DNA of 64,000 bases from an uncultured candidatus Porisulfidus sp. (GTDB taxonomy: Bacteria; Pseudomonadota; Gammaproteobacteria; Poriferisulfidales; Poriferisulfidaceae). The stretch is taken from assembly GCA_965221375.1 (NCBI GenBank), contig OZ244883.1, forward strand, positions 1,107,893 to 1,171,892. Reading direction: 5' to 3'. This document shows, piece by piece, positions 8,369 through 42,174 of the stretch (the stretch's first letter is position 1; each line of letters opens with the position of its first letter). Under the pieces are notes generated by a model. It was not told the origin of the DNA, did not search any database, and was given only the letters and a program-made list of their open reading frames with translations. The position numbers and the translations under genes were made by a program.

Positions 8369-8373
8369 GCGAA

Positions 8374-9759
8374 TTATTCGCGGATGCCGCCCTGCGTCAG
8401 CGCAACGGCATCCAGTAAGCGGCGTAAATCATCTTCCGATAAATCCGTCTGCTCGCGTGCGACATCCAGCACCGGGCGCATTTCCGCATACGCCTGCTTC
8501 GCGATCGCCGCACCTTTCTCATAGCCGATCACCGTATTGAGCGCCGTCACCAAAATCGGATTGCGCTCCAAAGGCTGCTGTAAAGCCATTTCATTGACGG
8601 TAAAACCGGCAATCGCCCGGTCCGCCAGAATGCGTGAAGCATTACCCAATATCTCAATGCTTTGTAAAAGGTTATAGGCAATCACCGGCAGCATGACATT
8701 GAGCTGAAAATTCCCGGATTGACCCGCCACCGTAATGGTGGCGTCATTGCCGATCACTTGTGCTGCCGCCATCGCCACAGATTCCGGAACCACCGGGTTG
8801 ACCTTCCCCGGCATGATGCTGCTACCGGGCTGTAATGCCGGTAAGCATATTTCGCCCAGCCCTGCCAAAGGCCCGGAATTCATCCAACGCAGATCGTTGG
8901 CGATTTTCATCAGACTCACCGCAACCGTTTTCAGTTGCCCGCTCATCTCGACTGCCGCGTCTTGAGCCGCCAGACCTTCGAATTTGTCCGGTTTTGAGGA
9001 AAACCGAACCCCGGTGTTTTCTTGGAGAACTGCAACAAAGGTCGCGGCGAATTCTTCCGGGGCATTAATTCCACTGCCGACCGCCGTGCCTCCCTGTGCC
9101 AGCTCATGCAGGCGTGTCAAAGCATTTTCCACGCGGTCGATGCCGTAGCCGATTTGATGCTTCCAGGCATGCACTTCCTGTGACATGCGAACCGGCATCG
9201 CATCCATCAGATGCGTGCGGCCCGTCTTGACATATTTCTCCAACTCCTCCGCCTTGGTCTGCAGGGTCTGTTGGAGGTGGGCCAAAGCCGGCAGCATCTG
9301 CTTGTCAATCAAAATACAGGCGCTCACGTGGATGGCCGTCGGAATCACGTCATTTGAACTCTGACTCATATTCACGTGATCGTTCGGATGTATTCCAGTT
9401 CCCGCCAATTGGGCAATCACTTCATTCACATTCATATTCGTGCTGGTGCCGGAACCGGTTTGAAACACATCCACCGGAAAGTGCTCATCATGCAGTCCGT
9501 CCGCTACTTCTTGCGCGGTCTTTGCAATAGCCGCCGCCTGTTTATGGGACAGGAGATCCAATTTCTCGTTCGCCTGCGCGCAGGCGCGTTTTACTTCACC
9601 CAAGCCACGCAGGAAACTGCGGGGCATCCGTAATCCGCTCACCGGGAAATTTTCGACAGCGCGCTGGGTCTGCGCACCATAAAGCGCATCTTGGGGCACT
9701 TCCACTTCGCCCATGCTGTCCTTTTCAATTCGAGACGCGGCCATAGTCCTGACACTCAA
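8374..9759 (-). CDS. fumC: class II fumarate hydratase (aspartase/fumarase superfamily)
   Basis: 461 aa; RIEKDSMGEVEVP...GAQTQR N-terminus, GSSIMPGKVNP signature, VTALNTVIGYEKGAAIAKQA C-terminal motif typical of FumC rather than AspA. Start could instead be the Met 5 codons in (MAASRIEK). Confidence 0.8.
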   Translation of the reverse strand: MSVRTMAASRIEKDSMGEVEVPQDALYGAQTQRAVENFPVSGLRMPRSFLRGLGEVKRACAQANEKLDLLSHKQAAAIAKTAQEVADGLHDEHFPVDVFQTGSGTSTNMNVNEVIAQLAGTGIHPNDHVNMSQSSNDVIPTAIHVSACILIDKQMLPALAHLQQTLQTKAEELEKYVKTGRTHLMDAMPVRMSQEVHAWKHQIGYGIDRVENALTRLHELAQGGTAVGSGINAPEEFAATFVAVLQENTGVRFSSKPDKFEGLAAQDAAVEMSGQLKTVAVSLMKIANDLRWMNSGPLAGLGEICLPALQPGSSIMPGKVNPVVPESVAMAAAQVIGNDATITVAGQSGNFQLNVMLPVIAYNLLQSIEILGNASRILADRAIAGFTVNEMALQQPLERNPILVTALNTVIGYEKGAAIAKQAYAEMRPVLDVAREQTDLSEDDLRRLLDAVALTQGGIRE

Positions 9760-9812
9760 AGTTGTATGTGCGGAAAGTATAATAAACCTTTATTGCCGAA
9801 ACCGCCTTACTT

Positions 9813-11186
9813 TTGTTGGAACTCTCACCGTTGACCGCCCTGTCGCCAGTGGATGGGCGCTATTTCCAAAACAGCGGAAACCAACTCCGCCAACTCTTCT
9901 CCGAATTCGGATTAATCAAACACCGCCTGGAAATTGAGGTCGCATGGCTAATTTCTTTGTCTGATCACCCGAACATTTCTGAAGTCCCCGCGCTTGCCGA
10001 AACAGGCCGAGAAAAACTGCAGGCTTTAGTCGCGCAGTTTTCTGTGGAGCAGGCGCAAACAGTCAAAAATATCGAGAAAGACACCAACCACGATGTCAAG
10101 GCGCTGGAATACTATCTGCGCCAGCACTTGGTTGAAGACCCCGAACTGGCTCCCCTGGAAGGTTTTATTCATTTCGCTTGTACCTCCTGGGATGTCAACC
10201 ATCCCGCCTATGCGCTGATGCTCAACCGCGCGCGCAGCGAGGTGTTGCTGCCGGCACTGGAACAATTGACCCAGCAAATTCGTGACATGGCCCATGCCCA
10301 CGCAGACCAGCCCACGCTGTCACGCACCCATGGGCAACCGGCATCTCCCACCACGTTGGGCAAAGAATTGGCCGTCACCGTTGCCCGTCTGCAGCGGCAA
10401 CTGCAACATCTACACGAAATGCAATTCCTGGCCAAGATGAGTGGCGCCACCGGTAACTACAACGCGCACCTGGCCGCCTATCCGGAAATAGACTGGCCAG
10501 CCCACGCCGCGCAGACCCTGCAGTCGTTGGGACTCGAAATGAATCCGTGGACCACACAAATCGAACCCTACGACCAGTTTGCGGAATTCTTTCATGCCCT
10601 GATTCGTATCAACAATGTATTGACCGATTTTGCTCGTGACATTTGGCAATACATCTCCTTGGGTTATTTCCAGCAGAAGACCAAAGAAGGCGAAGTGGGC
10701 TCCTCCACGATGCCCCACAAAGTCAACCCGATTGATTTTGAAAACGCGGAAGGCAATCTGGGATTGGCCAACGCCGAACTGAATTACTACGCAAGCAAAC
10801 TGCCCATCTCACGCCTGCAACGGGACTTGAGTGACTCTACCGTGCTGCGCAACATGGGTACCACATTGGCCTCCAGTGTCAACGCCTATGGAGCGCTGTC
10901 GCGCGGCCTCAACAAGTTGGAAGTCGATGCGGCAGTGCTTGAGAAGGACTTGGCGGACTGTCCTGAAGTCTTGGCCGAGGCCATACAAACCGTAATGAAA
11001 CGCTATGGCTTGCCGGATCCCTATGAACAATTAAAAACCTTCACGCGAGGCCAGCGCATCACTTTAGAAAGTCTCCACGAATTGATCGCCACATTAGAGT
11101 TGCCGGATGATGTCAAGGAACGGCTCATGAAAATGGAAGCAAAAGATTACATCGGCCACGCCGCCGAGCTCGCACGTAAGATCTGA
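9813..11186 (+). CDS. purB: adenylosuccinate lyase
   Basis: 457 aa; MLELSPLTALSPVDGRY N-terminus, SRTHGQPASPTT, GSSTMPHKVNPIDFEN signature; collinear with E. coli PurB. Confidence 0.93.
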   Translation: MLELSPLTALSPVDGRYFQNSGNQLRQLFSEFGLIKHRLEIEVAWLISLSDHPNISEVPALAETGREKLQALVAQFSVEQAQTVKNIEKDTNHDVKALEYYLRQHLVEDPELAPLEGFIHFACTSWDVNHPAYALMLNRARSEVLLPALEQLTQQIRDMAHAHADQPTLSRTHGQPASPTTLGKELAVTVARLQRQLQHLHEMQFLAKMSGATGNYNAHLAAYPEIDWPAHAAQTLQSLGLEMNPWTTQIEPYDQFAEFFHALIRINNVLTDFARDIWQYISLGYFQQKTKEGEVGSSTMPHKVNPIDFENAEGNLGLANAELNYYASKLPISRLQRDLSDSTVLRNMGTTLASSVNAYGALSRGLNKLEVDAAVLEKDLADCPEVLAEAIQTVMKRYGLPDPYEQLKTFTRGQRITLESLHELIATLELPDDVKERLMKMEAKDYIGHAAELARKI

Positions 11187-19506: not shown

Positions 19507-20046
19507 ATGGATGTCGCGATGACTTATGACACGGATGACGATCACGCCACATTTGAAAAAGCCATGGAAGACGTGGCGCCGCTTGGCCAGCGTTCTAAAT
19601 CCGCTCGCTCAGGACACCCTCTCAAAGCGCCTCCGGTCACATCCAAACCGAGTTTCTCTTCACCCGGCCTGCAGGTTGATTTACGCCGCGTTTCACCCAT
19701 TGCAGGGGATTTGATACTGGACTGGAAACGCGCTGGGCTGCTCAACAAGGAGTACCATAAATTGTGCACCGGGCGGCTGACGCCCTCACCCAAAGAATTC
19801 GACCTGCATGGACTGCATATGCACGAAGTCGTGGAACAAATCCACCAGGCAATCTTCGAAACCCACCAGGCGCGGCGACACTCGTTGTGCCTGGTGCATG
19901 GCAAAGGCCTGCGGTCGGGTACAGGCGACTCGCTGGCCAAAGGCGTCGTGGTCGCCGTACTACGCACGCATCCCGAAGTGATGGGCTTTCATAGCGTGCC
20001 GCGCAATACCGGGGCCGTGAATGTCCTGCTGCGGAGACCACGATGA
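19507..20046 (+). CDS. Smr-domain protein (SmrA-like)
   Basis: 179 aa; C-terminal Smr domain DLHGLHMHEVVEQIHQ...LCLVHGKGLRSG; N-terminus low-complexity. Stop overlaps the moeA start (ATGA). Confidence 0.75.
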   Translation: MDVAMTYDTDDDHATFEKAMEDVAPLGQRSKSARSGHPLKAPPVTSKPSFSSPGLQVDLRRVSPIAGDLILDWKRAGLLNKEYHKLCTGRLTPSPKEFDLHGLHMHEVVEQIHQAIFETHQARRHSLCLVHGKGLRSGTGDSLAKGVVVAVLRTHPEVMGFHSVPRNTGAVNVLLRRPR

Positions 20047-21308
20047 AACAGACTTCCCCGGCAGCCAGCTGCATGGACGATTTTGATGCGCAATCGATTT
20101 TGCCCGAACAAGCGCATGCCCATATTCAAGCCTCGGTACAACCTGTCGGTGACACCGAAAAGATCCCGATTGGAGACGCACTCGATCGTATCCTCGCCGT
20201 GGAGGTGCATTCGGGAATTGATGTGCCCGGTGATGTCAATTCAGCCATGGACGGGTACGCCTTGCGTGGGCAGGATCTACCGGAACAATCACCGGCCTCC
20301 TTCAAACTGATCGGTTCCTCCTTTGCAGGACATCCTTTTGAAAGCCCCGTAGGCCAAGGCGAGTGCGTGCGCATTATGACGGGCGGCATCATGCCGGACG
20401 AGACCGATACGGTGGTCATCCAAGAGCGAGTGCGTGTGATCGATCCCGAGACCATAGAAATTCCTGCCACGGAGTCGGCAGGTCAAAACGTTCGCGGCGC
20501 GGGTGAAGATATTGCCGCCGGTCATGTAATTCTCCCTCAGGGACGCCAATTGACACCTGCAGACCTCGGATTGCTGGCCTCCACCGGGATTACCCATGTC
20601 GAAGTGAATCGACGACTGCGCGTGGCGTTCTTTTCTACCGGCGATGAGCTCCGCGAAATTGGAGAACCGCTGGATAAAGGATGCATCTACAACAGCAATC
20701 GCTACACCCTGCGAGGCATGCTGCAGAGGCTGCATGTAGAACCACTTGACCTCGGAACAGTCCCGGACCGACGTGAGGCCGTCGCAGAGACTCTGCATCA
20801 GGCGGTCGAGCAAGCCGATATGGTTATCACCTCGGGTGGTGTATCCGTGGGCGAGGCCGATTATGTCACGGACGTCTTGGAAGAATTGGGCCAAGTTAAA
20901 TTCTGGAAAGTCGCCATCAAACCAGGACGACCTTTGACCTTTGGGTGGCTTGGATCGGCTTGTTTTTTTGGACTACCGGGAAATCCCGTGTCCGTGATGG
21001 TGACGTTTTACTTGTTTGTGCGCCCTGCTTTGTTGCGCATGATGGGAGCGCAGGAATCTGCCCCACTATCACTGACCGTGCCTGTCTCGACGCCTTTGCG
21101 GAAGCGTCCCGGAAGAGTCGAGTACCAGCGAGGCATCCTCAGCCGTGATGCTGAAGGGAATTACACAGTCGCGCGCACCGGAGCTCAAGGCTCCGGCATC
21201 TTGACCTCTATGAGTCAAGCCAATTGCTTTATCGTCTTATCTCTGGAACAGGATAACGTTGATGTGGGAACGAAAGTCGAAGTGATTCCTTTCGACAGTA
21301 TCGCTTAA
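20043..21308 (+). CDS. moeA: molybdopterin molybdotransferase MoeA
   Basis: 421 aa; DVPGDVNSAMDGYALRG, MoeA/gephyrin-E core GGVSVGEADY; the first ~10 aa may be an extension (alternative start MDDFD). Confidence 0.88.
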   Translation: MKQTSPAASCMDDFDAQSILPEQAHAHIQASVQPVGDTEKIPIGDALDRILAVEVHSGIDVPGDVNSAMDGYALRGQDLPEQSPASFKLIGSSFAGHPFESPVGQGECVRIMTGGIMPDETDTVVIQERVRVIDPETIEIPATESAGQNVRGAGEDIAAGHVILPQGRQLTPADLGLLASTGITHVEVNRRLRVAFFSTGDELREIGEPLDKGCIYNSNRYTLRGMLQRLHVEPLDLGTVPDRREAVAETLHQAVEQADMVITSGGVSVGEADYVTDVLEELGQVKFWKVAIKPGRPLTFGWLGSACFFGLPGNPVSVMVTFYLFVRPALLRMMGAQESAPLSLTVPVSTPLRKRPGRVEYQRGILSRDAEGNYTVARTGAQGSGILTSMSQANCFIVLSLEQDNVDVGTKVEVIPFDSIA

Positions 21309-21318
21309 AGATTCGTAT

Positions 21319-21765
21319 TCATCCGGGGGTATTGTTCTTGACCCACCGGTGGCTGCCATCCTCAAGTTCTTCGCGTTTCCAAAAAGGCGCATGAGATTTT
21401 AATTCTTCCATAATCAGACGATTGCTTTCATAAGCCGCCTTGCGGTGCGCCGCCCATGTCGCAACCAGCACAATCGAATCGCCAGGCTGCAGATCTCCGA
21501 CACGGTGTCGCAATAATACGGCTCCCAGATCATATTGTTGCTGGACTTGAGCAACCATTTCTTCCAGATAGGACTGCGTCATTTTGGAGTAGTGATCCAA
21601 AAACATAGACCGCACCGTATCGCCCTCGTTATGGTCGCGCATCGTGCCGACGAAAACCGCCATGGCCCCGCATTCCGCAGCCAAATGACTGTGTTTTTTC
21701 TGAAAATCATGAATTTCTTGCCACACTTCAAGAAGTTCTTCGACCAGCTGGATATCTGCAATCAT
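21319..21765 (-). CDS. moaE: molybdopterin synthase catalytic subunit MoaE
   Basis: 148 aa; VGTMRDHNEGDTV ... HAPFWKRE; MoaE family. No moaD ORF of at least 60 aa adjacent. Confidence 0.85.
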   Translation of the reverse strand: MIADIQLVEELLEVWQEIHDFQKKHSHLAAECGAMAVFVGTMRDHNEGDTVRSMFLDHYSKMTQSYLEEMVAQVQQQYDLGAVLLRHRVGDLQPGDSIVLVATWAAHRKAAYESNRLIMEELKSHAPFWKREELEDGSHRWVKNNTPG

Positions 21766-21828: not shown

Positions 21829-23058
21829 TCAGGAGCTCAATTTTTGACGGACCTCGCTGCGTCCGAGTTCAGGCTTCTGAAAATGGCGCAGGAGCGCCGA
21901 TGGCCCCTGTGCTTGAAACTCTTCGAGTGAAGGCCCCTTGTACTGGCAGTAGGACGTGCTGGTTTCGTGAATTTCCAATTCTTCCAGAGCCGGCAAATAA
22001 TCAATCAATCGCTCCCATATCCATGCGGCCAGGAATTCGGTACTGGAGCGCCATGCCAATTCCGGCGCCGCATAGTTGAGCGTATGATGATCCAAGGCGC
22101 GGATGACACGTGCATCGATGATGTGCTTGAGGATACCGTAATCCATCACAAAGCCATGGGCGGGATCGATGCGGTCATGAATCTTGAAATGCGCCGCATA
22201 GTGCCCCCCATGAAGATTGGCGCATGATCCGGGATGATCCGTGATGAAATGCGCTGCATCGAAGCCTCGCTCCTTGACAACGGTTGCCCGTGGCCCGTCA
22301 CCGCAGAATCGGTCGTCTTGTCCGGGGATTTCCCGCAACGACGTCTGCAGCGCCTGACACAATCGTTGTGTGTCCTCCAAACTTCGGGTCCGCAACCATA
22401 CCCGGTCGTCCAACGGCTCCAGTTTCTGGAGGTTGACACCGTGCTTATCCAGCAACCACTGACATAAGGCATCAAACTCTTGACTGGCCGGTGCTTGGAA
22501 AAAAATGTAACCCGCCTGAGGTGACGCACAGCACGTCACCACCACCGCTACGTAGCGGTCGCGGTCTTCGTCGGATAATTCAGCAAACTCCACCGGGGTA
22601 ATGGCTTCCTGATTGGATCGTTTCAATACGTTGCGGGCAACCATCCGATGGCTTCCGCCGGCGATGGAGTATTCCTGGCGAAACACAAAACCCAACGGCT
22701 GCAGATGTTGCTGCATCCACAAAAGCGCATCAAGGCTGCGAATTTCCCCCGGAATCACTTGCCAGACCTCGTCTTCATCCAAACGGCCTGCCGTTCGGGC
22801 CGCTCCCAAAACAATACGTCCGTCGTGATGGTTTGGATCGGAGGCGTGCGGGTAATCCTCAGGATTTTCTTCCTGATCTGCCTTGTGCGCCGGAACCAAC
22901 GTATCCAGCATCACACCGTGGCGCAGAGCATATTCCTGCAGTGTCAAGCCGCAACATGCGAGCAAATGCTCGTCCAAAATTTCAATATCTGTCTGGCATT
23001 CGGGGCATTTCATAAGCACAAATCCGCAGGGGACGCCTTTCGTTTCATTGTACGGCAA
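21829..23058 (-). CDS. fusion protein: N-terminal uncharacterised domain (Cys-rich zinc-ribbon-like start) + C-terminal 6-pyruvoyl-tetrahydropterin synthase (PTPS/QueD-fold) domain
   Basis: 409 aa. The last ~125 aa (FDAAHFITDHPGSCANLHGGHYAAHFKIH...LDHHTLNYAAPELAWRSSTEFLAAWIWERL) carry the PTPS/QueD signature (His triad, LDHxxLN). The first ~270 aa start MKCPECQTDIEILDEHLLACCG, a family I do not recognise. Lies at the edge of the H4MPT gene block. Confidence 0.6.
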   Translation of the reverse strand: MPYNETKGVPCGFVLMKCPECQTDIEILDEHLLACCGLTLQEYALRHGVMLDTLVPAHKADQEENPEDYPHASDPNHHDGRIVLGAARTAGRLDEDEVWQVIPGEIRSLDALLWMQQHLQPLGFVFRQEYSIAGGSHRMVARNVLKRSNQEAITPVEFAELSDEDRDRYVAVVVTCCASPQAGYIFFQAPASQEFDALCQWLLDKHGVNLQKLEPLDDRVWLRTRSLEDTQRLCQALQTSLREIPGQDDRFCGDGPRATVVKERGFDAAHFITDHPGSCANLHGGHYAAHFKIHDRIDPAHGFVMDYGILKHIIDARVIRALDHHTLNYAAPELAWRSSTEFLAAWIWERLIDYLPALEELEIHETSTSYCQYKGPSLEEFQAQGPSALLRHFQKPELGRSEVRQKLSS

Positions 23059-23075: not shown

Positions 23076-23107
23076 AAAAAAAAGCGCCGCATAAGCGGCG
23101 CTTTTTT
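23076..23107 (-). terminator. rho-independent terminator after fae (bidirectional-type hairpin)
   Basis: A8 - AGCGCCGC - ATAA - GCGGCGCT - T6 read directly; sits 19 nt downstream of the fae stop on the minus strand. Confidence 0.8.
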
Positions 23108-23125: not shown

Positions 23126-23650
23126 TTAGAAGCCTTGGAAGGGGTGATCGGTGCTGTCTTTGGCAGAAAGCACATCATCAACCGAAGGAGTTCCAGCAAC
23201 AGCATTTGCAATCGCCTGCTTGGTCGCCTTGTAGTTGTTTTCATAAATCGCCGCATCGCTGGCTGCTTCCCAGTGAATGAAGACACCTACGCACACGTAG
23301 AGATTGTCACATTCATCTTTGGGGATAACGCCTGCTTCCACGGAATCCGCGACTGCCATGGCCACAGCTTTCTGTGCGGGGCCAAACATTTGCACGGCTT
23401 GCTTTGCGCCTTTGATCGTCACCTTGTTGTACATCATGGTGTCGGGTTTGCACGGCAGGTTCGGGCCAACCACAGCCAGCAGGGTGGTGAAACCGTCCTT
23501 GTTGTTCACCAAGCCATTGCAGAATGCGGTTTCCGCCGCGGAGCCGCGCGGTCCAATGATGAGATCGATGTGGGCGATTTCGGCCATAGTCCCGGAGGGA
23601 TCATTGTCATTGACCAAAGCCTCGCCAACGAGAACTTTATCGATTGCCAT
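23126..23650 (-). CDS. fae: formaldehyde-activating enzyme (5,6,7,8-tetrahydromethanopterin hydro-lyase)
   Basis: 174 aa from ATG 23650 (GGAG 8 nt upstream): [16 protein letters not shown]...[44 protein letters not shown]...[17 protein letters not shown]...IHWEA, collinear in my memory with Methylobacterium Fae. The ORF-track start at 23680 adds a spurious 10-aa extension. Confidence 0.9.
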
Positions 23651-23670
23651 TATTAAAACTCCAAAAATTT

Positions 23671-23684
23671 TTGTTTGCAAACAA
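23671..23684. promoter_or_regulatory. perfect 14-bp palindrome TTGTTTGCAAACAA in the fae 5' region
   Basis: Read directly, 21-34 nt upstream of the fae ATG and 29 nt downstream of the orf7-like stop; flanked by AAAAATTTTT. Confidence 0.4.
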
Positions 23685-23712
23685 CGGGCACGCAGTTTTA
23701 AGACGCCCCCGA

Positions 23713-24630
23713 TTAGATTCGAGAATCACTTCCCGAGGTCAGGACATCGCTGTCCCGATCATCGCTCCACCCCGCAAGCCGCGCCGCAAACACTCCTGCG
23801 AGTGTTAAATCCGCCGTGGTTCCGGGGCTGATACCGGAGCTTTTCCACAAAGCATCCAGTTCCAGGAGCCGTGACTGATAAGTTTGCGGAACTTTTGCAT
23901 CGCAAAACTTATCTGCCAGCGACTTAATCTTACCACTAATTGCGTCCGCCGTAGCCGCACCATGCACACGGGCGACATGAGAATCCGGATAATGCGCCAG
24001 CATATGCAGAAACGTTCCGACCATCGCCCAGCGCGGGTCTTTCCAACGTTGGCACAAGTTTTCCCACTGCGGCTGCGCTTGATTTAGAACAAGTTCGAAG
24101 CCGTTGCAGTACTCGGCTGCGATGCGATCGCGGGACGACGCCAACTCCATCGCGGCGCGCAAAGAAATCCTGGGCGCGTCCTGAATATCCGCTTTTTCAA
24201 CCTGACCCAGGCCCACCGGCTGCATGAGTCGGATGGCGCGATAAACATCGCGTGCATCGGTCACTGTGGTCGCCTCCAATACCTGGGGAAGACATTTCGA
24301 CCACTTTTCTTCGGCACAGCGGTAATACGCCTCCACCATGGGAGCAACCAGCAGCAATATGCCGATATTCGTATTGCAGCCCACGACTTCCCAGGTCGCT
24401 TGCGCGGCTTGCCACACACGCTTCCCCAAAGTCCAGTTCGGCCGAGTCACCAACTCTGCGGAGGCTTGGGCACTTTGCCGAAAATCTCGACATGTTTTAC
24501 CGTGCCCTTCTCCATGCAAGCCGACATTCCCTGGTTTTAGCGACTGCAAATCAAGCAAACAGGCGTAAAGGTATTGACGTGAAACAAACCGCCACGTCGG
24601 TTCATAGTGAGCACGCAGATAACGAAACAC
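23713..24630 (-). CDS. triphosphoribosyl-dephospho-CoA synthase (CitG/MdcB)-like protein of the H4MPT cluster (Orf7-like)
   Basis: 305 aa; family assignment is from the overall CitG-like pattern and its fixed position between fae and the RimK-like ATP-grasp gene in methylotroph H4MPT islands. Weaker than neighbouring calls. Confidence 0.55.
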
Positions 24631-24641
24631 TGCAGAAAACT

Positions 24642-25544
24642 TTACGCTTCCTTATGACAATGCGCCAAGAAACCTTCAATCAACAATTCGGAAATATCCT
24701 GCTGACTGACTTGCTGGAGACCCCGCCATGCCGGAATGCTATTGATTTCGGTCACCCAAAACGCACCCTCCCGATCCTGCATCAGGTCGACTCCCGCATA
24801 GGACATGTCCACGGCCGATGTCGCGCGCTGGGCCAAATCCGACAACTGACTATCCAGAGCGGCAGGATAGCCTTGACCTCCATTGGCGATATTGCTGATC
24901 CAATCATTCCCTTCTCTTCGCATCGCTGCCTGTGCCCGGCCTTTCACCACCAACACCCGCCAGTCGCAACTGCCCGAAGCTGCCGACTCAATGTATTCCT
25001 GCAGATAGTACATGCCGTGATACAAATCATAATTCGGATGCGGCGTCTCACGGGTCAACCGCATCAATCCTTTGCCTTGAGATCCAAAGATAGGTTTCGC
25101 AACAATACTCTCGTGAGTCTCAAACCAATGCGCCAGGAAGGCGCGAGTTTGGCGAAGACTTCGGGCCACGAAAGTGCGCGGAGTCGGAATGCCGTGGTGG
25201 GCGAATAAAAAACTGGCGCGTACTTTGTCTACACTGCGCTCAATCGCACCGGCATCGTTGTAGACACCAATGCCCTTGGCCTCCAAGGCGTGAAGCACAT
25301 CCAAATAAAAAATAACCTCTTCAAGAGTGCCTCCCGGCACTTCTCGAACAAAAACACCTGCCGGCAATTGACCGTCGAAACCGGGCAAGTCAATGTGCGC
25401 GCCTTTGTGATCAATCTCGATACGGCACTCGCGCAAACTGACAAAACAGCTGTCCCGATCATGTCGCTTGAGCGCCTGCTGAAGTTGTTGCCCGTGCCAG
25501 CCCGGATGGTCCGTTACGATGGCGTAACGCCCAGGTGCGGTCAT
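24642..25544 (-). CDS. RimK-like ATP-grasp ligase, tetrahydromethanopterin:alpha-L-glutamate ligase-like (Orf5/MptN-like)
   Basis: 300 aa; ATP-grasp features IVAKPIFGSQGKGLMRL, DWRVLVVKGRAQAAMRR, WISNIANGG, GVDLMQD...WVTEINSIP; overlaps the mch start by 4 nt. Confidence 0.75.
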   Translation of the reverse strand: MTAPGRYAIVTDHPGWHGQQLQQALKRHDRDSCFVSLRECRIEIDHKGAHIDLPGFDGQLPAGVFVREVPGGTLEEVIFYLDVLHALEAKGIGVYNDAGAIERSVDKVRASFLFAHHGIPTPRTFVARSLRQTRAFLAHWFETHESIVAKPIFGSQGKGLMRLTRETPHPNYDLYHGMYYLQEYIESAASGSCDWRVLVVKGRAQAAMRREGNDWISNIANGGQGYPAALDSQLSDLAQRATSAVDMSYAGVDLMQDREGAFWVTEINSIPAWRGLQQVSQQDISELLIEGFLAHCHKEA

Positions 25545-26500
25545 TCTTCAAACGACTGCTTCAAAAGATCAGCATCCAAGGCTCCGGCCGCAAAGGAGCG
25601 GCCCGTCTGAATATTACTGACCAGTACCCGTGCCGGACTGAATAACATCGGATCGATTTTGAAAAAGTCGTATTCGTAATCTTTGAATATCGTGGCAAAA
25701 GGCTTGCCGTAATCGCGCGAAGTACTGCTCGGTAATTGTGTTGCTAAACGCTCCGCTTCCTCATCGCTCGATTGGACAAACAGTTTGACCTGTCCGCCGA
25801 ACAAAATCGCATCGTTGGTGCGACCCATCATTTTCACCATATCGGAACTATTCAGGGGTGGGACCGGCGCACTGCCGATGCCATCGATGACCTGTTGCAG
25901 ATCAAACCCCAATACATGCGTTTTATGCAGCGCCACTTCCAATACCCGACCCACAACCTGCACCGTGCCCGCGAGACTGGTGGTAGGTGTCAAAATCAAT
26001 GTGAGATTTTCGGGTTCGACATTACAGTCTCGACAGATTTTCTGGCGCACGGAAAGCGGCGGCACCCGGTCCACTTCCATCACCAGAGTCGTTGTGTCGT
26101 GCTCATCCCGATAGTCGAGCTCACTAAACAACTCTTCACGCTGCGCCAGGCAACGCGCCGGACCCGAGCCCAAGGCATGAAATTTTTCTTCCGAATCGTT
26201 CAAGCTCCAGCCGGCATACTGGCTCGCCAGGCAAGCCAATACCGGATGCTGGGTATGTATGTGAATGGACAACGGCCAATCATCCGGACGATCATAGGTG
26301 AAGGTCGCCTGTCCCAACCCGCCTAGACAAATTTCAGTAATTTGACGACCGGCTTCAATACCGCCCACCGTCTCAATGCCCGCATCAATAATCCGTACAC
26401 CTTCTTCCGTCCGGGATTTTTTGATGCGTAAATTTTCGGCATCCTCCACTAAATGACACACCAATGGATCGGCCAGTTGATTAATGCTAATGCGCGACAT
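25541..26500 (-). CDS. mch: methenyltetrahydromethanopterin cyclohydrolase
   Basis: About 319 aa from MSRISINQLADPLV; RIIDAGIETVGGIEAGRQITEICLGGLG matches Mch. The ORF-track start at 26533 adds 11 aa and lengthens the overlap with the upstream gene. Confidence 0.88.
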   Translation of the reverse strand: MSRISINQLADPLVCHLVEDAENLRIKKSRTEEGVRIIDAGIETVGGIEAGRQITEICLGGLGQATFTYDRPDDWPLSIHIHTQHPVLACLASQYAGWSLNDSEEKFHALGSGPARCLAQREELFSELDYRDEHDTTTLVMEVDRVPPLSVRQKICRDCNVEPENLTLILTPTTSLAGTVQVVGRVLEVALHKTHVLGFDLQQVIDGIGSAPVPPLNSSDMVKMMGRTNDAILFGGQVKLFVQSSDEEAERLATQLPSSTSRDYGKPFATIFKDYEYDFFKIDPMLFSPARVLVSNIQTGRSFAAGALDADLLKQSFEE

Positions 26501-27647
26501 GGACAACCTCTTGTGGTAGCTGTGCGGAGTCAAAATGTGCGGATAATTTTTCCAATACGTCGGCGCGCAAATCTTCTAATTCGGCAAGCACCGTGTCGGC
26601 ATCACTCCCGCGGCTGTGTACCGTGCATAAGGGATTCCCTTTTGACACTCTGGTTTGGGCGTGCGGCCGGTCTGCGGCCGCATCCGGCCACTGACAATGT
26701 GCGGAAATAATGACTTCTTGGGGCGCATAGACAACCCGCATCCCGTTCACGCCGCCTGCGTCAGGCACCAACACATCCCGCGCGATGTTCTTATCAAGAC
26801 ACGTTTGGATATGTGCTTGCATATAACCGTGCAGAAAACGTTCCTGATACAGCTCGCATGTTGCAGTTAAGCGGGGATTGAGATCAAGCATGAAGATACG
26901 GTGATCAGAAGTGAGAACAAAATCAAAGCCACAAAGGCCAAGCAAGCCCAAATCACACGTCAGATTGTCAGCAATCCATTGTACTTGCTCCAGCGCTTCG
27001 GGCGGCAATTCCACCGACCCAATGGCGCCGCCCCACATATAAGGCGTTGCCGCCTCTTCCGCCGCCAGCAGGCGGCTGACCCCAATCAATTCCGCCTCGG
27101 TCCCACCCGCCAAAAACAAGGCTGAATGTACGTCTCCCTCGCAATAACGCTGCCAATAAATCTCTTGATCGCGCCCCTCATACGAATCTGCCGGATGCAC
27201 ATGCGCTCCACCCGAACGCCGGTTACGTTTGACTAACCAACCCGATTGTGACTCGGGTGCAGTGTGACGCATCTCCGGCATCGGTATCTGCAAAACATCG
27301 CAGCGCGAAGTCAGTGATCGTGCATCCGTGCACTGGCGCAGGACTTCCTCGGAATTTCCAAGCACGTTGACATGCCTTTTCAGTTGAGTCAAGAGTCCCG
27401 GGTCTGCTTCGAAGCCCGAGCCGTAGATCAGCCGGTCGCCCGATTGGCTGCGCTCGCTGACCTGCCGCACAATTTCCGCAGTGAATTGCCCTTCCCGCAA
27501 CGGCACGACACGGCACTCATCGGCCTGCAGATCTTCGTCTGCAAACCCATCCAAAGCAATCACTGGACAATGCAGGTGCGCGGCCGCCTGGGCATGCGCC
27601 CGCGCTGAAGCCGACAGCACAAACAGGCGGCTTATTTGGCTGCGCAC
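26487..27647 (-). CDS. ATP-grasp superfamily protein of H4MPT-linked C1 clusters (OrfY/COG2232-like)
   Basis: 386 aa; ATP-grasp-like central region (LVKRNRRSGGAHVH, GLCGFDFVLTSDHRIFMLDLNPR). Position between mch and mtdB is typical for methylotroph H4MPT islands. Family assignment is moderate. Confidence 0.55.
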   Translation of the reverse strand: MRSQISRLFVLSASARAHAQAAAHLHCPVIALDGFADEDLQADECRVVPLREGQFTAEIVRQVSERSQSGDRLIYGSGFEADPGLLTQLKRHVNVLGNSEEVLRQCTDARSLTSRCDVLQIPMPEMRHTAPESQSGWLVKRNRRSGGAHVHPADSYEGRDQEIYWQRYCEGDVHSALFLAGGTEAELIGVSRLLAAEEAATPYMWGGAIGSVELPPEALEQVQWIADNLTCDLGLLGLCGFDFVLTSDHRIFMLDLNPRLTATCELYQERFLHGYMQAHIQTCLDKNIARDVLVPDAGGVNGMRVVYAPQEVIISAHCQWPDAAADRPHAQTRVSKGNPLCTVHSRGSDADTVLAELEDLRADVLEKLSAHFDSAQLPQEVVHVAH

Positions 27648-28531
27648 TGGCGCGCTACTTCAAACGCATGTTCGAAATGGTAATACACCGGCTCGTCCGT
27701 TTCGCGCATCTGTCGCAACAAAGTCTGTTGCGTCTGGTACTTCACATTGCCAATCGCCAAAGCGCCGATACCGACAGCGCCACTGCCGGAGTCCTCGATG
27801 GGTTTCGCATCATCCATCACCCCCAGGCCATGAATTCCCGAAGGCGGAACCGCATTGACATCCGCCGCCACTTTCAGACGTGGTGCACTTGCAATCTGTT
27901 CTTTTGACATCAATTGAATGCCTGCCGCGGCAGATGCAAAAATCACATCCGTCTCATTGAGCAAGGTATCCAACTGATCGTTGGCCTCACCGTCAATCGA
28001 CGTGCCGGCTTCGTATTTCTGATTGCATAGCTGCGCCGCCTGCTCACTTTTTTCTTTCTTGCGCCCCAAAATGGTGACGTGTGCGCCTGCGTCTGCGGCA
28101 ATGACCGCGGCGGCGGAGCCGACCGGTCCAGTGCCCCCGAGAGCCAAAATGCGCTGGTCTGAAAGTTCTGTGCCATGTACATCGCGAAGTGATTTTTCGA
28201 CTTTTGCGACCATGGCCGCTGCCGTCGTAAATGCCCCACTGGGATCCGCGAAAGCGGAAATCACAAAAGGCGGAACCATGGATTTCTGGCAGATTTCCAG
28301 CATTTCCATGGCCTGATGCATGTCACGACCGCCAATAAACAGCCCGGTCCGGCGCACGCCGCTGGGCCCGCGTGAAAAAATTGCATCTTCCACCAGTCCT
28401 TTGGTGTCTTCCACTTCCACCTGGATATACGGAATGCAGGCATCCCAGCCTGCGTCGTAAGCCATGTTGGCGTCAAAGGGGCTCAGATTCTTCGCAGAAG
28501 TGAGCATATGCAGTAAATATTTTTTGTCCAT
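27632..28531 (-). CDS. mtdB: NAD(P)-dependent methylene-tetrahydromethanopterin dehydrogenase
   Basis: 299 aa; GGRDM, LGGTGPVGSAAAVIAADAGAHVTILGRK Rossmann segment, overall collinear with MtdA/MtdB. Confidence 0.85.
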   Translation of the reverse strand: MDKKYLLHMLTSAKNLSPFDANMAYDAGWDACIPYIQVEVEDTKGLVEDAIFSRGPSGVRRTGLFIGGRDMHQAMEMLEICQKSMVPPFVISAFADPSGAFTTAAAMVAKVEKSLRDVHGTELSDQRILALGGTGPVGSAAAVIAADAGAHVTILGRKKEKSEQAAQLCNQKYEAGTSIDGEANDQLDTLLNETDVIFASAAAGIQLMSKEQIASAPRLKVAADVNAVPPSGIHGLGVMDDAKPIEDSGSGAVGIGALAIGNVKYQTQQTLLRQMRETDEPVYYHFEHAFEVARQCAAK

Positions 28532-28563
28532 AAAAAATGTATTCGAAAATTGAAGAGGTAATT

Positions 28564-29550
28564 TTAAGAAATTTGGCGCTGCAGCGGAATCCCTTCCGCC
28601 ATCTCACCTGTCATGACCTGGTGCCCATGGTTGCAGGCACGCACAACATGAACCAACACGTCCGGTTCCGCAAGCTGCAATTCGCGGGAAAGTTTTTGCG
28701 CCTGGGTTTCGCTCTCGGTCAACACAAACCCCGTGGGGCCCCACGAACTTTGTCCTATGCCGGCGAAGCCCAACTGTTCTGCTTTATTCAAACTCGAAGC
28801 AATGGCCGGATGGGTGAAGCGGCCTCCTTGAACCGGAGCGAAATGATCTCCGACCGTCTTCTGCAACTCACCGATGCCCTGCGCAAAGGGTTCGAAATTC
28901 CCCTCAAACAACGCCGGTAAAACACGCATCAAGGTCAACCGACATAGGTGGGCGGCTTTTGCTTCCGGAAGTTTCGGCAAATCATCAAAAGCGGTCCGCT
29001 CCGCGGTTCCCGACAATCCTTCCTCGCCACTTTTTGCTTGCAGCAATACAATCCGCCAATGCTCGGGAAAAGTCTGGCGCACGATAATGGGAGGCAATTT
29101 GGCAGGCTCGCCCCGGCCCCCATCCAGCAAAAATCCTCCTTGCTGAAACGCACCCCATCCAATGCCCGACCTGGATCCTCGGCCCAGTTCAATGCTGATA
29201 TCCCGAAGGCTCATCTCAATGTCAAACAGATATTTAATCGCTGCACCCACGGCCAATGCCAACTGCGTCCCGGATCCTAGTCCCACATGCCCCGGAATGG
29301 CTTCATGCATATGAATTTGGACCGCACCCGGACAATGATAATGCTGCATGACTCGACGCGCATAGTCACAGGCTCGCTGCGCATCCGGGCCGGTCGCTGA
29401 GAATTCGCCGGCAGGCTCGCAGGACAAGTGCGTGCAAAGTTCGCTCAGTGCTACCCCCATGCTTCCGAAATGCCGCCCCAGTCCCCCATGCATATCCAGA
29501 AAACCAAGGTGTAGTCGACCTTGAGTCTTGATTTGAACCGCTTTATTCAT
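28564..29550 (-). CDS. mptG: beta-ribofuranosylaminobenzene 5'-phosphate synthase (H4MPT biosynthesis), GHMP-kinase fold
   Basis: 328 aa; GHMP motif IPGHVGLGSGTQLALAVGAA; fixed member of the H4MPT island. Confidence 0.75.
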   Translation of the reverse strand: MNKAVQIKTQGRLHLGFLDMHGGLGRHFGSMGVALSELCTHLSCEPAGEFSATGPDAQRACDYARRVMQHYHCPGAVQIHMHEAIPGHVGLGSGTQLALAVGAAIKYLFDIEMSLRDISIELGRGSRSGIGWGAFQQGGFLLDGGRGEPAKLPPIIVRQTFPEHWRIVLLQAKSGEEGLSGTAERTAFDDLPKLPEAKAAHLCRLTLMRVLPALFEGNFEPFAQGIGELQKTVGDHFAPVQGGRFTHPAIASSLNKAEQLGFAGIGQSSWGPTGFVLTESETQAQKLSRELQLAEPDVLVHVVRACNHGHQVMTGEMAEGIPLQRQIS

Positions 29551-33651: not shown

Positions 33652-34006
33652 TGGGGGTGACCCGGTTTCGACGGCGGTTACGGACTCCAAGGCGCATGCC
33701 GAGGCGGTAGCGACCTCGTAAAAAATGGCTGCAAAACATTAGTTGCCAACGACGACAACTACGCACTAGCGGCTTGATCCGCTAGTCATCCTTCCGGGAG
33801 ATGCTTGTGGATCCTGTTTGGATGTCGACTACACAAGCTCGCCTTGCAACCTGCCTGGAGTTGAAAGGTTAAACGAAACATCCAGACTGGCGATCATTAA
33901 GTCCTGTCCGTCGGGCGTTGATCGTAAGATAAAAGACGGTGCTAAGCATGTAGTGCCGAAGAGAAAGAACTGTTGGACGCGGGTTCGATTCCCGCCACCT
34001 CCACCA
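33652..34006 (+). ncRNA. ssrA: transfer-messenger RNA (tmRNA, SsrA)
   Basis: 5' GGGGGUGAC...UUCGACGG and 3' GGACGCGGGUUCGAUUCCCGCCACCUCCACCA form the tRNA-Ala-like acceptor/T-arm. Resume codon region GCAUGCCGAGG...; tag ORF GCC AAC GAC GAC AAC TAC GCA CTA GCG GCT TGA = ANDDNYALAA*. Collinear with E. coli ssrA. Confidence 0.93.
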
Positions 34007-34030
34007 ATCACCGGCTTCAAGAATTTCCAT

Positions 34031-34066
34031 AAGGCCTCGTAAAAAAGCTTTGCGAGGCCTTATCTT
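34031..34066 (+). terminator. rho-independent terminator after ssrA
   Basis: AAGGCCTCG - loop TAAAAAAGCTTTG - CGAGGCCTT followed by ATCTT, read directly. Confidence 0.7.
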
Positions 34067-34188
34067 ATGTGACTAGCGCGCAATATAGGCTTAAGGCATC
34101 CTTCTATATTTTGCATTTTAATAATATAAATGGTAATATTCTTCCATGTTATAATTTTTAAACATATAAGACCCAATTTGGGGTCCTT

Positions 34189-35346
34189 ATGTCAAAATCT
34201 AGTCAAATGGAACGAAGTGGCCACTTTCGGCATGTGCCTGCGGGGTATAGAGCATTCTTTCCTGCACTACTGCCACCCACGCCCCCTATTGCGATTGAGG
34301 GTAGCCTGCAACAGCTCCTTTCGAAGGCTGATCAAACCATGAGCGTGTTAAATGTGGTTTTTAGTGTTCTGCCTAACCCCGACCAATTAGTAGGAATGTT
34401 CATGCAGAAAGAGGCCTTGCTCAGCTCGCAGATTGAGGGTACCCAATCGTCCCTGATAGATGTGCTGGGAGTCGAAGAAGGTAATCCTCCAACAGCAGAT
34501 GTGGGAGAGGTCTTGAACTACCTGGCCGCCATGCGTCATGGCATGCAGCGTCTGCAAAAAAACGAACTTCCTCTGTGTGCTCGCCTGCTCAAAGAATTAC
34601 ATCTGAAATTGATGGCAGAGACAAGAGGAGGCGGCCCTCATCTCACTCCAGGTGAATTTCGCACTATGCAGAACTGGATTGGCGGCAGTAGCCCCGCCAA
34701 CGCTCGCTTTGTGCCACCCCCGGCCGATGAACTGGGCGTAATGTTCGGAGAGCTGGAGAAGTATTTCCATACCGAGAATGATACGCCGCCATTGGTGCAG
34801 TGTGCCCTGATTCACTACCAGTTTGAAACCCTGCATCCCTTCAATGATGGCAACGGGCGCTTGGGACGTTTGTTAATCAGCCTGTTTTTGTTAAGCAGAG
34901 GTGTGTTGGATCAGCCCATGCTGTATCTCAGCGCCTACCTGAAAATTCATCAACAAGAATATTACGATCGCCTGCAACAAGTGCGCACTGACGGTAGTTA
35001 TGAGAAATGGTTGACCTTTTTCTTGGAAGGTATTGTGGCTGTTAGTGATATGGTCATTGACACTACCCGCCGGATTCAAGCATTAGAGCGCAGTGATACA
35101 GACGCGATGACCACTGCCGGAACTGGCAGCGAAAGCATTGCCTTTATTCGTGCCCTGCTACAGCAGCCTGTTGTTTATGTAAGGGATATTGAAAGGCACT
35201 TGAACATCTCTTATGCCAAGGCCAATCAAATGGTGGCGTTGGCCGAAAAGATGGATATCCTGAAGCAAATCAGTCATGGCAAACGAAACCGGAAATACGG
35301 TTATCAAAAATATATTGAAATTTTGTCTGAAGGAACCGAAATCTAA
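34189..35346 (+). CDS. Fic-family protein (AMPylator-type, class II with N-terminal inhibitory motif) with C-terminal winged-helix domain
   Basis: 385 aa; Fic motif HPFNDGNGRLGRLL; inhibitory-helix-like SSQIEGTQ ((S/T)xxxE(G/N)) upstream of the active site; C-terminal ~70 aa HTH-like. Preceded by an AT-rich 120-bp spacer. Start could be ATG 34207. Confidence 0.85.
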   Translation: MSKSSQMERSGHFRHVPAGYRAFFPALLPPTPPIAIEGSLQQLLSKADQTMSVLNVVFSVLPNPDQLVGMFMQKEALLSSQIEGTQSSLIDVLGVEEGNPPTADVGEVLNYLAAMRHGMQRLQKNELPLCARLLKELHLKLMAETRGGGPHLTPGEFRTMQNWIGGSSPANARFVPPPADELGVMFGELEKYFHTENDTPPLVQCALIHYQFETLHPFNDGNGRLGRLLISLFLLSRGVLDQPMLYLSAYLKIHQQEYYDRLQQVRTDGSYEKWLTFFLEGIVAVSDMVIDTTRRIQALERSDTDAMTTAGTGSESIAFIRALLQQPVVYVRDIERHLNISYAKANQMVALAEKMDILKQISHGKRNRKYGYQKYIEILSEGTEI

Positions 35347-35542
35347 TGCCAAGGCCGCACTTTATATTCCTGGATAAATTACCCCTGTTTCCAAGTGCTT
35401 CACAGAATTGTCATAAAACATAAAACACATATAATAAATGAGCCGTCAACTTATCTGGTTACAGCGCTAGGAGAGTTTCTGCAGCAACTTAATTAGCTTC
35501 CTGCAGGCATAAACGTCAGGTGCTTTATCCAAGAGGTCCCTT

Positions 35543-38074: not shown

Positions 38075-38142
38075 CCACGGGTATGCTGCTGGCGACAGCA
38101 GAGACACAGCTTTGATTTGGATGTATGCTCGGCAGAGCATGA

Positions 38143-39117: not shown

Positions 39118-39185
39118 CGGAATCGGGTCCAAGCGATTTGGCGTCAGGTCTCTGGCGGAATCCTACCTTGCCCGTGTCTATGTAA

Positions 39186-40271: not shown

Positions 40272-40411
40272 GATTGTCCGCAGTTCCTGCGCTGCTTACT
40301 CGCGTAACACCTCGCTACTCCATGCACATCTTTATTTTACTTTCAAACGTATGAAAGCGTCTCGACCGCCTCAACTGTACCTGCAAAACCCCCATAGAAA
40401 AGAACCGCACA

Positions 40412-40834
40412 TCAACTTTCTTCCGGCCTGCTGAATAAAGTAACTTTAGAAATTTGAAGCTGGCGCAGAATCTCGAACAATCGGTCCAGATTTTTAGCCT
40501 TAACCTCTTTATCTGCTTTCACGATGACCCCTTCTGAACCTGCATTTGTTGCTCCCAAAATATCCGCATCCAAAGATTCGTACGTGACAGGCTTGCCATT
40601 GATACTGAGTGAATTATCTGTTTCCAGAATCAGCACAACCGGAGCATGTACTAATGGTTTTTTACTACTTGAAACCGGAGGATCAATATTACGTCCTCGA
40701 GGATCCGTAATCTGCCCAGCAATCATATAAAACACCAGCATCAAAAACACGATGTTGACAAGTGGAATCATGTTATCGTCACCACCACGTTTAGAACGTG
40801 GCGTATATAACTCGTTCGAAAACATACCGCCCAC
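40412..40834 (-). CDS. exbD: ExbD/TolR-family biopolymer transport protein
   Basis: 140 aa; N-terminal MIPLVNIVFLMLVFYMI TM, periplasmic ExbD domain. Confidence 0.8.
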   Translation of the reverse strand: MGGMFSNELYTPRSKRGGDDNMIPLVNIVFLMLVFYMIAGQITDPRGRNIDPPVSSSKKPLVHAPVVLILETDNSLSINGKPVTYESLDADILGATNAGSEGVIVKADKEVKAKNLDRLFEILRQLQISKVTLFSRPEES

Positions 40835-40841
40835 AATGAAC

Positions 40842-41264: not shown

Positions 41265-41279
41265 CTCAAATCACGTCAC

Positions 41280-41948: not shown

Positions 41949-42174
41949 ATGCGGGTTTGTCTAAGAAAAAATAGGAATTATTTAACTAAAAGAACGAGAA
42001 TAGCTCTTTTCAGTACAAGTATTATAGATTGCGTTTCGCCAGATCCGTGGAATGCCGATGAAGATACTGCTTCTTTTCTCTAGTTTCCGGGATAGAGAGG
42101 CTTACATTTTCTCCGAAATTATTAAAATACGCAATAACGCCAATTCCTCACGTCTCTATAAGAAACCTCGCGCT

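Follow-up and report, generated by a model that had tools for sequence, protein, structure and literature searches.

Enzymes of the 6-pyruvoyl-tetrahydropterin synthase (PTPS) type are distinguished by their active-site signatures, CxxxHGH in PTPS-I/QueD, CxxxxxHGH in PTPS-II and ExxHGH in PTPS-III, and paralogues of the PTPS-III/VI kind supply 6-hydroxymethyl-dihydropterin for tetrahydromethanopterin (H4MPT) or folate in some Archaea (PMC5041015). The LAGLIDADG_2 endonucleases of phages (PF03161), present on many IMG/VR contigs, are mobile and mostly not fused to enzymes. Very few cases of homing-endonuclease domestication are known, among them WhiA (DUF199; PDB 3hyi/3hyj, 8dy9), a degenerate LAGLIDADG transcription factor of Gram-positive bacteria. 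Here we describe a gene that joins a PTPS-type domain to an N-terminal half with predicted zinc-finger and LAGLIDADG folds, located on the minus strand of a 64,000-nucleotide stretch of DNA (hereafter the window) from an uncultured gammaproteobacterium, Candidatus Porisulfidus sp. (assembly GCA_965221375.1, contig OZ244883.1, positions 1,107,893 to 1,171,892). It immediately follows fae, where a block of H4MPT genes ends; an initial annotation made from the sequence alone had already placed it at the edge of the H4MPT cluster.

The C-terminal part of the fusion protein belongs with QueD/PTPS-I (E. coli QueD, PDB 3qn0/4ntk; COG0720, PF01242), from which it differs by an invariant Gly in place of the third His of the active site, a shorter loop ahead of the catalytic Cys with the sequence T-D-H-P, a 240-aa N-terminal module and a 35-aa tail; it also sits in an H4MPT island rather than among que genes, and scores under the NCBIfam cutoff for QueD. 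The PTPS-III/VI enzymes are, like the fusion, COG0720 paralogues recruited to another pterin pathway and clustered with its genes (PMC5041015), and they are the closest functional parallel to a PTPS gene located in such an island, although they are single-domain proteins of Archaea or of folB-lacking bacteria with no endonuclease module, and the fusion has no ExxHGH. The phage LAGLIDADG_2 endonucleases share with the fusion the layout of a zinc finger followed by a double LAGLIDADG, a link established at profile level through four phage-type relatives (P0095, P0106, P0109 and P0110), but in them the LLGDG and MDDG motifs are intact and the surface is basic. WhiA carries a C-terminal helix-turn-helix (HTH) with which it binds DNA, and no enzyme domain, whereas in the fusion a zinc finger stands at the N-terminus and a PTPS enzyme at the C-terminus, and the surface is acidic; the two show no detectable sequence similarity (7-13% identity). 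Finally, Ros/MucR proteins (PF05443; Ros87, PDB 2jsp) have in common with the fusion the pattern C-x2-C-x9-H-x3-(C/H) followed by a (T)xxEY...LP helix, but they are basic DNA binders, whereas the fusion scores under the family cutoff, uses Cys as fourth ligand and is acidic. What appears to be new is a COG0720 enzyme with an unprecedented N-terminal half that is under selection and probably derived from an endonuclease.

Architecture of the fusion protein

The gene occupies one unbroken open reading frame (ORF) on the minus strand, 21829..23058, which counts 409 aa from a TTG. This start at TTG 23058, adopted in the initial annotation, adds 15 residues that lack support. Because homologues begin M-x-C-x-E-C (Met at position 1 in 63/76 sequences of the family alignment) and a 394-aa database protein (P0001) is 100% identical to the window protein, we moved the start to ATG 23013 (MKCPEC...), which is almost certainly the true one. 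Residue numbers refer to the resulting 394-aa protein unless ORF residues are stated.

That a single gene encodes both halves, as initially proposed, is borne out by the homologues. When the N-terminal 245 aa were used as sole query, 78 proteins were retrieved, of which 76 are continuous, 400-418 aa long, and carry PF01242. The PTPS part is missing from the two short exceptions, P0078 (205 aa, on a 3.6-kb contig) and P0070, which would favour a two-gene annotation or assembly artefact. However, P0070 (L086, 6001-7226) is a frameshifted fusion gene, in which a 249-aa ORF is overlapped by a 175-aa PTPS ORF, and it represents either a sequencing error or a recent pseudogene; moreover, the full-length AlphaFold2 (AF2) model forms a single confident body (predicted local distance difference test, pLDDT, 91.8; predicted template modelling score, pTM, 0.89), and the same collinear architecture is found in a distant phage-type branch. 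The probability of such an artefact is therefore negligible. The island around P0070 is otherwise intact, with the gene in its usual position between fae and orf19.

Direct scans with the first ~255 aa of the ORF returned no significant Pfam or NCBIfam match, and a family-profile search of PDB sequences returned PTPS chains only. The N-terminal module was recognisable only through structure prediction and distant relatives. These identify known kinds of domain, contrary to the initial description of this part as novel: in the model, a small beta-beta-alpha unit precedes two alpha-beta-beta-alpha-beta-beta-alpha halves. The former is predicted to be a zinc finger of the Ros/MucR type, in which ligands H16 and C20 are invariant, C3 and C6 are kept in 72/76 sequences, and a near-invariant core, GLTLQEYALRH, follows. 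The Pfam model ROS_MUCR (PF05443) matches 26/33 members at E<=1 (best E 2.2e-5), with scores just below the cutoff of 25.4 bits (12.4 for the window protein, 24.1 for the phage-type P0095), and the best PDB match of the family profile for this finger is Ros (2jsp), with the ligands in register. The zinc-binding motif noticed at the outset thus stands, while the reading as a Cys-rich zinc ribbon of no known family gives way to a Ros/MucR-type finger and a degenerate LAGLIDADG fold. A similar finger (56% identity over 43 residues) is joined in P0102, a protein of 189 aa among the matches of the representative search, to an SGSH_C sulfatase C-terminal-like domain, which points to this small zinc finger as a mobile module recurring in other fusions.

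Beyond the linker, the predicted structure has the hallmarks of the LAGLIDADG fold, that is, the alpha-beta-beta-alpha-beta-beta-alpha succession in each of two lobes arranged as a saddle. The motif helices correspond to residues 66-76 and 156-168. The first half-saddle, formed by strands 110-117 and 124-133, is strongly conserved and provides the most conserved surface of the N-terminal half (F109, R112, Q113, E114, Y115, H122, R123, N128, K131). PF03161 matches none of the 76 bacterial members, even at E<=1, whereas their collinear homologues score 76-105 bits. At the Asp column of motif 1 (position 75; 73/76 sequences counted) the family has Ala 51, Cys 11, Gly 4, Val 4 and Ser 3, and at that of motif 2 (position 163; 76/76) Ala 37, Gly 35 and Ser 4, with no Asp or Glu among the counted residues of either column; in the window protein, hhalign places A75 and A163 opposite the catalytic Asp residues of the phage enzymes. 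To judge from these alignments and the model, the N-terminal half is a Ros/MucR-type zinc finger followed by a catalytically dead double-LAGLIDADG scaffold.

The charge of this module is also atypical. Net charges in the window protein are -4 for the zinc finger, -6 for the linker, +1 for LAGLIDADG half I, -3 for the inter-lobe segment and -4 for half II, and the median over residues 1-45 across the family is -3. In the phage-type relatives the corresponding values are +1 to +3 (zinc finger) and +4 to +12 (LAGLIDADG part). Without the positive charge expected of a DNA binder, the N-terminal module would be a poor candidate for such a role.

All modules evolve under purifying selection. Pooled Nei-Gojobori dN/dS over 34 orthologue pairs (dS 0.05-0.7) is lowest in the PTPS domain (0.14), followed by LAGLIDADG half I (0.18), the zinc finger (0.22), the C-terminal tail (0.28) and half II (0.31), and is highest in the linker (0.41) and the mid-segment 136-147 (0.43). 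Since the values for the zinc finger and half I contrast with that of the linker, the N-terminal module is not a relic.

The C-terminal domain has the T-fold (beta-beta-alpha-alpha-beta-beta), and Pfam PTPS (PF01242) aligns with ORF residues 260-375 (E 7e-28; 97.4 bits, cutoff 22.4; positions 2-120 of the 121 in the profile), a match found in 76/76 family members. H255, C264, N266, H268, D308, H309 and E350 are invariant in all 76 sequences, and C264, D308, H309 and E350 align with the corresponding residues of PDB 2oba in HMMER comparisons with PDB PTPS/QueD chains. By this correspondence, H255 and H268 would bind the zinc as its first two ligands, with C264 as catalytic Cys and E350 as the anchor of the pterin ring. 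The LDHxxLN signature of the initial annotation is confirmed by the invariance of D308, H309 and N313. Its His triad holds for two positions, H255 and H268; the third is a Gly (G270) in 76/76, and the three-His zinc site (H...HxH) is absent. The residue after G270 is Arg in 67/76 sequences and His in 9/76, among them the window protein, which yields the family motif C-x-N-L-H-G-G-(R/H)-Y, with the C-x3-H spacing of QueD/PTPS-I. Position 265 is occupied by Ser 33, Ala 27, Val 8, Glu 4 and Thr 3 (76 sequences). The loop preceding C264 is two residues shorter than in QueD and contains an invariant T258-D259 and H260 in 75/76; the sequence suggests D259 or H260 as a candidate replacement metal ligand.

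With respect to the described classes, the PTPS-I signature has the right Cys spacing here and lacks its last His. Membership of PTPS-II was rejected, the Cys lying 3 and not 5 residues ahead of the His and HGH being absent, as was membership of PTPS-III, the active-site Glu being present at position 265 in only 4/76 sequences and ExxHGH being absent. A precedent for a missing third His is provided by a CxxxHGY cluster (PMC5445326). Among NCBIfam models only sub-threshold matches were obtained (TIGR03367 QueD, 67.7 bits against a cutoff of 89.25; TIGR00039, 78.4 against 125.5), and in public pipelines the proteins go under the names "6-carboxytetrahydropterin synthase" and "PTPS family protein". 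When the PTPS half alone served as query, most matches were truncated fragments of this family on short contigs, and none made a convincing case for an independent stand-alone HGG lineage. The protein ends in a family-specific tail, modelled as three helices (363-369, 373-379, 387-393), in which G360, P361, L363, F378 and R389 are invariant in the family alignment.

Linkage to H4MPT islands and phage-type relatives

The family is rare, with 36 clusters at E <= 1e-3 in a full HMMER scan of 1.84 billion representative proteins. Its genomic context was assessed on the 80 best of 163 relatives, taking one genome per species. Their hosts are sulfur-oxidising Gamma- and Betaproteobacteria, and include Ca. 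Porisulfidus, Ca. Thiodiazotropha, Thiobacillus (including T. denitrificans DSM 12475), Oxydemutatoraceae, Arenicellales, Thiotrichales and Chromatiales; Thioalbus denitrificans also has the fusion gene. The closest species-level locus is from Ca. Porisulfidus (63% identity). In these genomes, fae lies directly upstream on the same strand in 62/80 loci and within 5 kb upstream in 67/80, the directly downstream gene is a HisA/F-like orf19 (on the opposite strand) or pabB in 66/80, and both direct linkages occur together in 57/80. Overall, 75/80 have an H4MPT-pathway gene within 5 kb. In loci that lack fae, the fusion gene nonetheless adjoins the block of orf19, ATP-grasp, hydantoinase-A-like, pabB and AA-kinase-like genes. 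The order orf5-orf7-fae-gene persists even for a member with only 22% identity in the N-terminal part, which comes from an AT-rich metagenome-assembled genome (MAG) and has no CxxC. No que or folE neighbours of the fusion gene were seen in the bacterial loci inspected. In one of the few loci with no H4MPT neighbours (L084, 11233-11910, an Oxydemutatoraceae MAG), the fusion gene comes after an HflX-like GTPase gene and there is a 4-nt overlap with a gene of the PF00923 transaldolase/fructose-6-phosphate-aldolase family.

In the literature, the H4MPT C1-oxidation cluster of Thiodiazotropha symbionts has been described with no mention of the fusion gene (PMC6712303). Our search found no paper joining LAGLIDADG with a 6-pyruvoyl enzyme, or a 6-pyruvoyl enzyme with methylotroph methanopterin.

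The weakest matches of the representative search, P0095, P0106, P0109 and P0110, are Lys/Asn-rich proteins of 450-490 aa in which Pfam recognises ROS_MUCR (up to 24.1 bits), LAGLIDADG_2 (80-105 bits, cutoff 25) and PTPS. Their GSLLGDG and W(F/Y)MDDG motifs are intact, and they share NLHGGRY with the bacterial family. The alignment by hhalign of the bacterial family with these four proteins (probability 100%, E 2e-83) extends over 376 collinear columns and covers all three modules. Their contigs are AT-rich and phage-like, with small, tightly packed, unannotated genes (GC content 28% in L087), and carry a T4 endonuclease V-like gene and a dUTPase. The neighbours of the phage-type fusions are a QueE-like radical-SAM gene (phrog_2076, E 1.4e-43), GTP cyclohydrolase I (FolE) or a Vut_1/YhhQ-like gene. 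More than 470 ZnF/LAGLIDADG_2 relatives are present on IMG/VR contigs. The DNA signature of C-x-N-L-H-G-G-R-Y had 0 matches in IMG/VR, the HGG-type fusion was not found among BFVD models, and annotated phage genomes yielded no full fusion, only separate LAGLIDADG or QueD matches. An independent viral fusion (IMGVR_UViG_3300025163_000238, L090, 131 kb; 9677-10999, plus strand) combines two HTH-like repeats, a LAGLIDADG part with intact LLGDAS and WYMDDGT, and a QueD with the canonical CGRFHAH, and adjoins an ORF (7946-8620) judged by eye to be QueE-like; homing endonucleases thus seem to have become fused to queD more than once.

As the motifs are intact in the phage-type proteins and degenerate in the bacterial form, the direction would have been from phage to bacterium. 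In the simplest history, a free-standing phage-type homing endonuclease would have joined a queD-like gene, in frame and at its 5' end, and the fusion would then have been captured by an H4MPT island. There the endonuclease would have been domesticated, losing its nuclease residues and most of its positive charge and retaining its fold.

Neighbourhood and transcription signals in the window

The features of the window that bear on the fusion gene are collected in Table 1. The ORFs of the H4MPT block, as mechanically called, overlap by 47 nt (ATP-grasp/mch), 4 nt (mch/orf5) and 16 nt (mtdB/ATP-grasp), consistent with translational coupling within one operon. Downstream, in the Ca. Porisulfidus-like lineage (window 19507-21765, and L004-L006), moaE and moeA replace the block of orf19, ATP-grasp, hydantoinase-A-like, pabB and AA-kinase-like genes, and this orf19-type second H4MPT biosynthesis block is absent from the whole window.

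Table 1. Position of the fusion gene, its modules and the neighbouring features in the window
Feature	Residues	Position	Strand	Remarks
Fusion CDS	1-394	21829..23013	-	394 aa + stop; based on ORF list, sequence, identical database protein P0001 and homologue starts
Beta-beta-alpha zinc finger, Ros/MucR type (predicted)	1-45	22879..23013	-	ligands C3, C6, H16, C20
Acidic, poorly conserved linker	46-62	22828..22878	-	
Two-lobed pseudo-dimeric LAGLIDADG fold (predicted)	63-230	22324..22827	-	both catalytic acidic residues lost
PTPS/QueD T-fold domain	241-360	21934..22293	-	HGG for HGH; keeps C264, D308-H309, E350, H255, H268
C-terminal helical tail, family-specific	361-394	21832..21933	-	GPSLEEFQ...LLxxF...LG.S..R
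Upstream H4MPT block		23126..29550	-	Pfam and NCBIfam; same order in Thioalbus and most of the 80 loci
fae		23126-23680	-	
orf7/CitG-like		23713-24630	-	
orf5/RimK-MptN-like		24642-25544	-	
mch		25541-26533	-	
ATP-grasp		26487-27647	-	
mtdB		27632-28531	-	
GHMP-kinase-fold mptG-like		28564-29550	-	purL beyond it
moaE		21319-21765	-	downstream of the fusion gene
moeA		20043-21308	+	downstream of the fusion gene
Intrinsic terminator directly after fae		23076..23107	-	A-run, GCGCCGC stem, TTAT loop, GCGGCGC stem, 8 T
TACAAT, possible -10 box (weak)		23047..23052	-	34 nt upstream of ATG 23013

The terminator after fae was read by eye from the sequence, and was not listed by a consensus scanner; similarly, TACAAT was not called in a promoter scan, which found no good -35. 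Comparison of the intergenic region between fae and the fusion gene in 66 loci revealed a terminator hairpin with a T-run after fae in most of them, including those of very divergent species, often followed by a TATAAT-like box. This arrangement suggests that the very high transcription of fae is deliberately kept apart from the fusion gene downstream. Co-transcription with fae, which had been put forward as a check on the initial annotation, is accordingly doubtful in the window, where the strong terminator and the TACAAT box separate the two genes; the Thiobacillus loci, by contrast, have no terminator and a gap of only 13-19 nt between the genes (13 nt in T. denitrificans). Rfam gave no credible riboswitch match (preQ1, THF) near the fusion gene.

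Farther away, just beyond purL, the window carries a transfer-messenger RNA (tmRNA) gene (33653-34006, plus strand; tag peptide ANDDNYALAA). The segment that follows it (34000-46000) has a GC content of 0.46-0.50, against about 0.54, and encodes a Fic protein, a TonB-dependent receptor, TonB, two ExbB/ExbD pairs, a di-haem cytochrome c peroxidase, a ferredoxin, a PD-(D/E)XK (AddB-like) nuclease and a uracil-DNA glycosylase. Possibly this segment is an island that entered at ssrA, but no integrase was seen.

Function and significance

Because of its tight linkage to H4MPT genes, we tentatively favour, with a confidence that falls just short of even, a role of the fusion protein in the pterin branch of H4MPT metabolism, as a QueD-like enzyme joined to a domesticated endonuclease. 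The C-terminal half would still be an enzyme, its probable substrate being the GTP-derived 7,8-dihydroneopterin triphosphate or a close 6-substituted pterin. It would use the machinery of Cys264 and Asp308-His309 with a remodelled metal site made of H255, H268 and a family-specific ligand, for which D259 and H260 are the candidates, and would feed or maintain the pterin moiety for H4MPT. An enzyme is favoured because the catalytic set is invariant except for one metal ligand, because the PTPS domain is the most constrained part of the protein, and because PTPS paralogues provide a precedent. The zinc-finger/LAGLIDADG module would no longer cut DNA, and would most likely act as a structural or partner-binding platform through the polar/basic half-saddle R112-Q113-E114-Y115 / H122-R123-N128-K131; since the module is acidic, such a role fits better than DNA binding. 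The kinds of role first proposed for the gene (a pterin side-chain step, or a regulatory or partner-binding module) remain the most reasonable given the H4MPT linkage, without a novel N-terminal domain.

Several observations weigh against this reading. The third zinc ligand is missing, so that catalysis is not assured, and the active-site loop 251-270 is the least confident part of the AF2 model (pLDDT 59-68). The family motif fits neither the PTPS-I signature nor those of PTPS-II and PTPS-III (PMC5041015), and, with Glu at position 265 in so few members, the signature does not predict a FolB-bypass (PTPS-III) activity. QueD chemistry is what the phage-type relatives suggest, and we know of no place in H4MPT biosynthesis for the QueD product, 6-carboxy-tetrahydropterin. 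The strong conservation of two modules of nucleic-acid-binding type is equally compatible with a regulatory role, and the synteny may partly reflect islands inherited as a block. Finally, a check put forward with the initial annotation was whether methylotroph islands of the orf19/orf20 type carry the same fusion. Known island genes of bacteria are orf1, 5, 7, 9, 17, 19-22, orfY, mptG, pabB, afpA and dmrA; no PTPS-type gene appears in the island gene lists of Methylosinus trichosporium (PMC3615186), and none of the 80 best loci comes from a Methylo* genus. The gene therefore looks non-essential for H4MPT synthesis in general.

A less probable, though conceivable, reading is that the dead module serves as a recognition device, for island DNA or RNA, a partner enzyme or a cofactor tail, and couples the QueD-derived pterin domain to the control or assembly of H4MPT. 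We include here, within the same modest share of probability, a variant in which the HGG-type T-fold performs an undescribed pterin reaction, for example an unassigned step of bacterial H4MPT synthesis; to our knowledge, several of these steps have no assigned enzyme.

The protein might instead be a pterin-responsive, WhiA-like DNA- or RNA-binding regulator of fae and the H4MPT island, with the T-fold as a sensor for H4MPT or one of its precursors, or a hybrid of enzyme and repressor such as BirA or PutA, possibilities that we regard jointly as unlikely. Both N-terminal modules are indeed of DNA-binding kinds, the zinc finger and the first half-saddle are nearly as constrained as the enzyme domain, strands beta3/beta4 carry conserved basic residues (R112, R123, R127, R129, K131), and the gene usually has a promoter-like region of its own behind a terminator, pointing to the low independent expression that a regulator would show. 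Yet the module is acidic where its phage-type relatives are basic, it has no HTH such as WhiA uses, a mere sensor would have no need of the invariant C264, D308 and H309, and no shared operator-like motif was apparent by eye in the 66 intergenic regions, on which no formal motif search was run. It is more doubtful still that we are dealing with a plain QueD for queuosine or 7-deazaguanine synthesis, to which a dead endonuclease clings as baggage and which hitch-hikes in the island. The PTPS-I-type spacing of C-x3-H, the QueE, FolE and YhhQ-like genes next to the phage-type relatives that share the HGG motif, and the name given by public pipelines would all suit a QueD, but the score lies under the NCBIfam equivalog cutoff and no que genes adjoin the bacterial loci inspected. 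Moreover, the family is confined to carriers of H4MPT islands (75/80) and to 36 clusters although queuosine synthesis is widespread, the linkage persists down to 22% identity, and a module under purifying selection is not baggage.

An active selfish homing endonuclease, inserted at or into a PTPS gene and spreading between islands, is very improbable. It would account for the LAGLIDADG fold, for the relatives with intact motifs in phage-like DNA and for the abundance of ZnF-LAGLIDADG_2 proteins on viral contigs. However, both catalytic acidic residues are replaced across the family, the DNA-binding charge is lost, purifying selection has acted over a divergence to about 30-40% identity, and there is no sign of presence/absence polymorphism for a gene whose position is fixed in 75/80 species, in most of them between fae and orf19. 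No Hint/intein domain was detected in the Pfam scan, and no intron-like RNA in the Rfam scan. A small share of probability goes to roles outside those considered here.

The label "6-carboxytetrahydropterin synthase" is probably a functional mis-annotation, since it takes no account of 60% of the protein, of the broken zinc triad or of the H4MPT setting. The protein retains a LAGLIDADG scaffold and a zinc finger under purifying selection as the N-terminal half of an enzyme of metabolic type, and the apparent 'before' state in phage-like 7-deazaguanine clusters would make the route from selfish element to cellular gene traceable. For the H4MPT formaldehyde-oxidation islands of free-living thiotrophs and sulfur-oxidising symbionts (Thiodiazotropha, Thiobacillus and Ca. 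Porisulfidus), it adds a conserved gene beyond the published Methylosinus gene lists (PMC3615186). Identifying what this gene's product converts or targets could uncover a step or a point of control that is specific to the lineage within bacterial methanopterin metabolism. If the N-terminal module does act as a recognition device, bacterial H4MPT islands would have in the fusion their first dedicated regulator or scaffold, and a domesticated LAGLIDADG would for the first time be seen joined to a metabolic enzyme.

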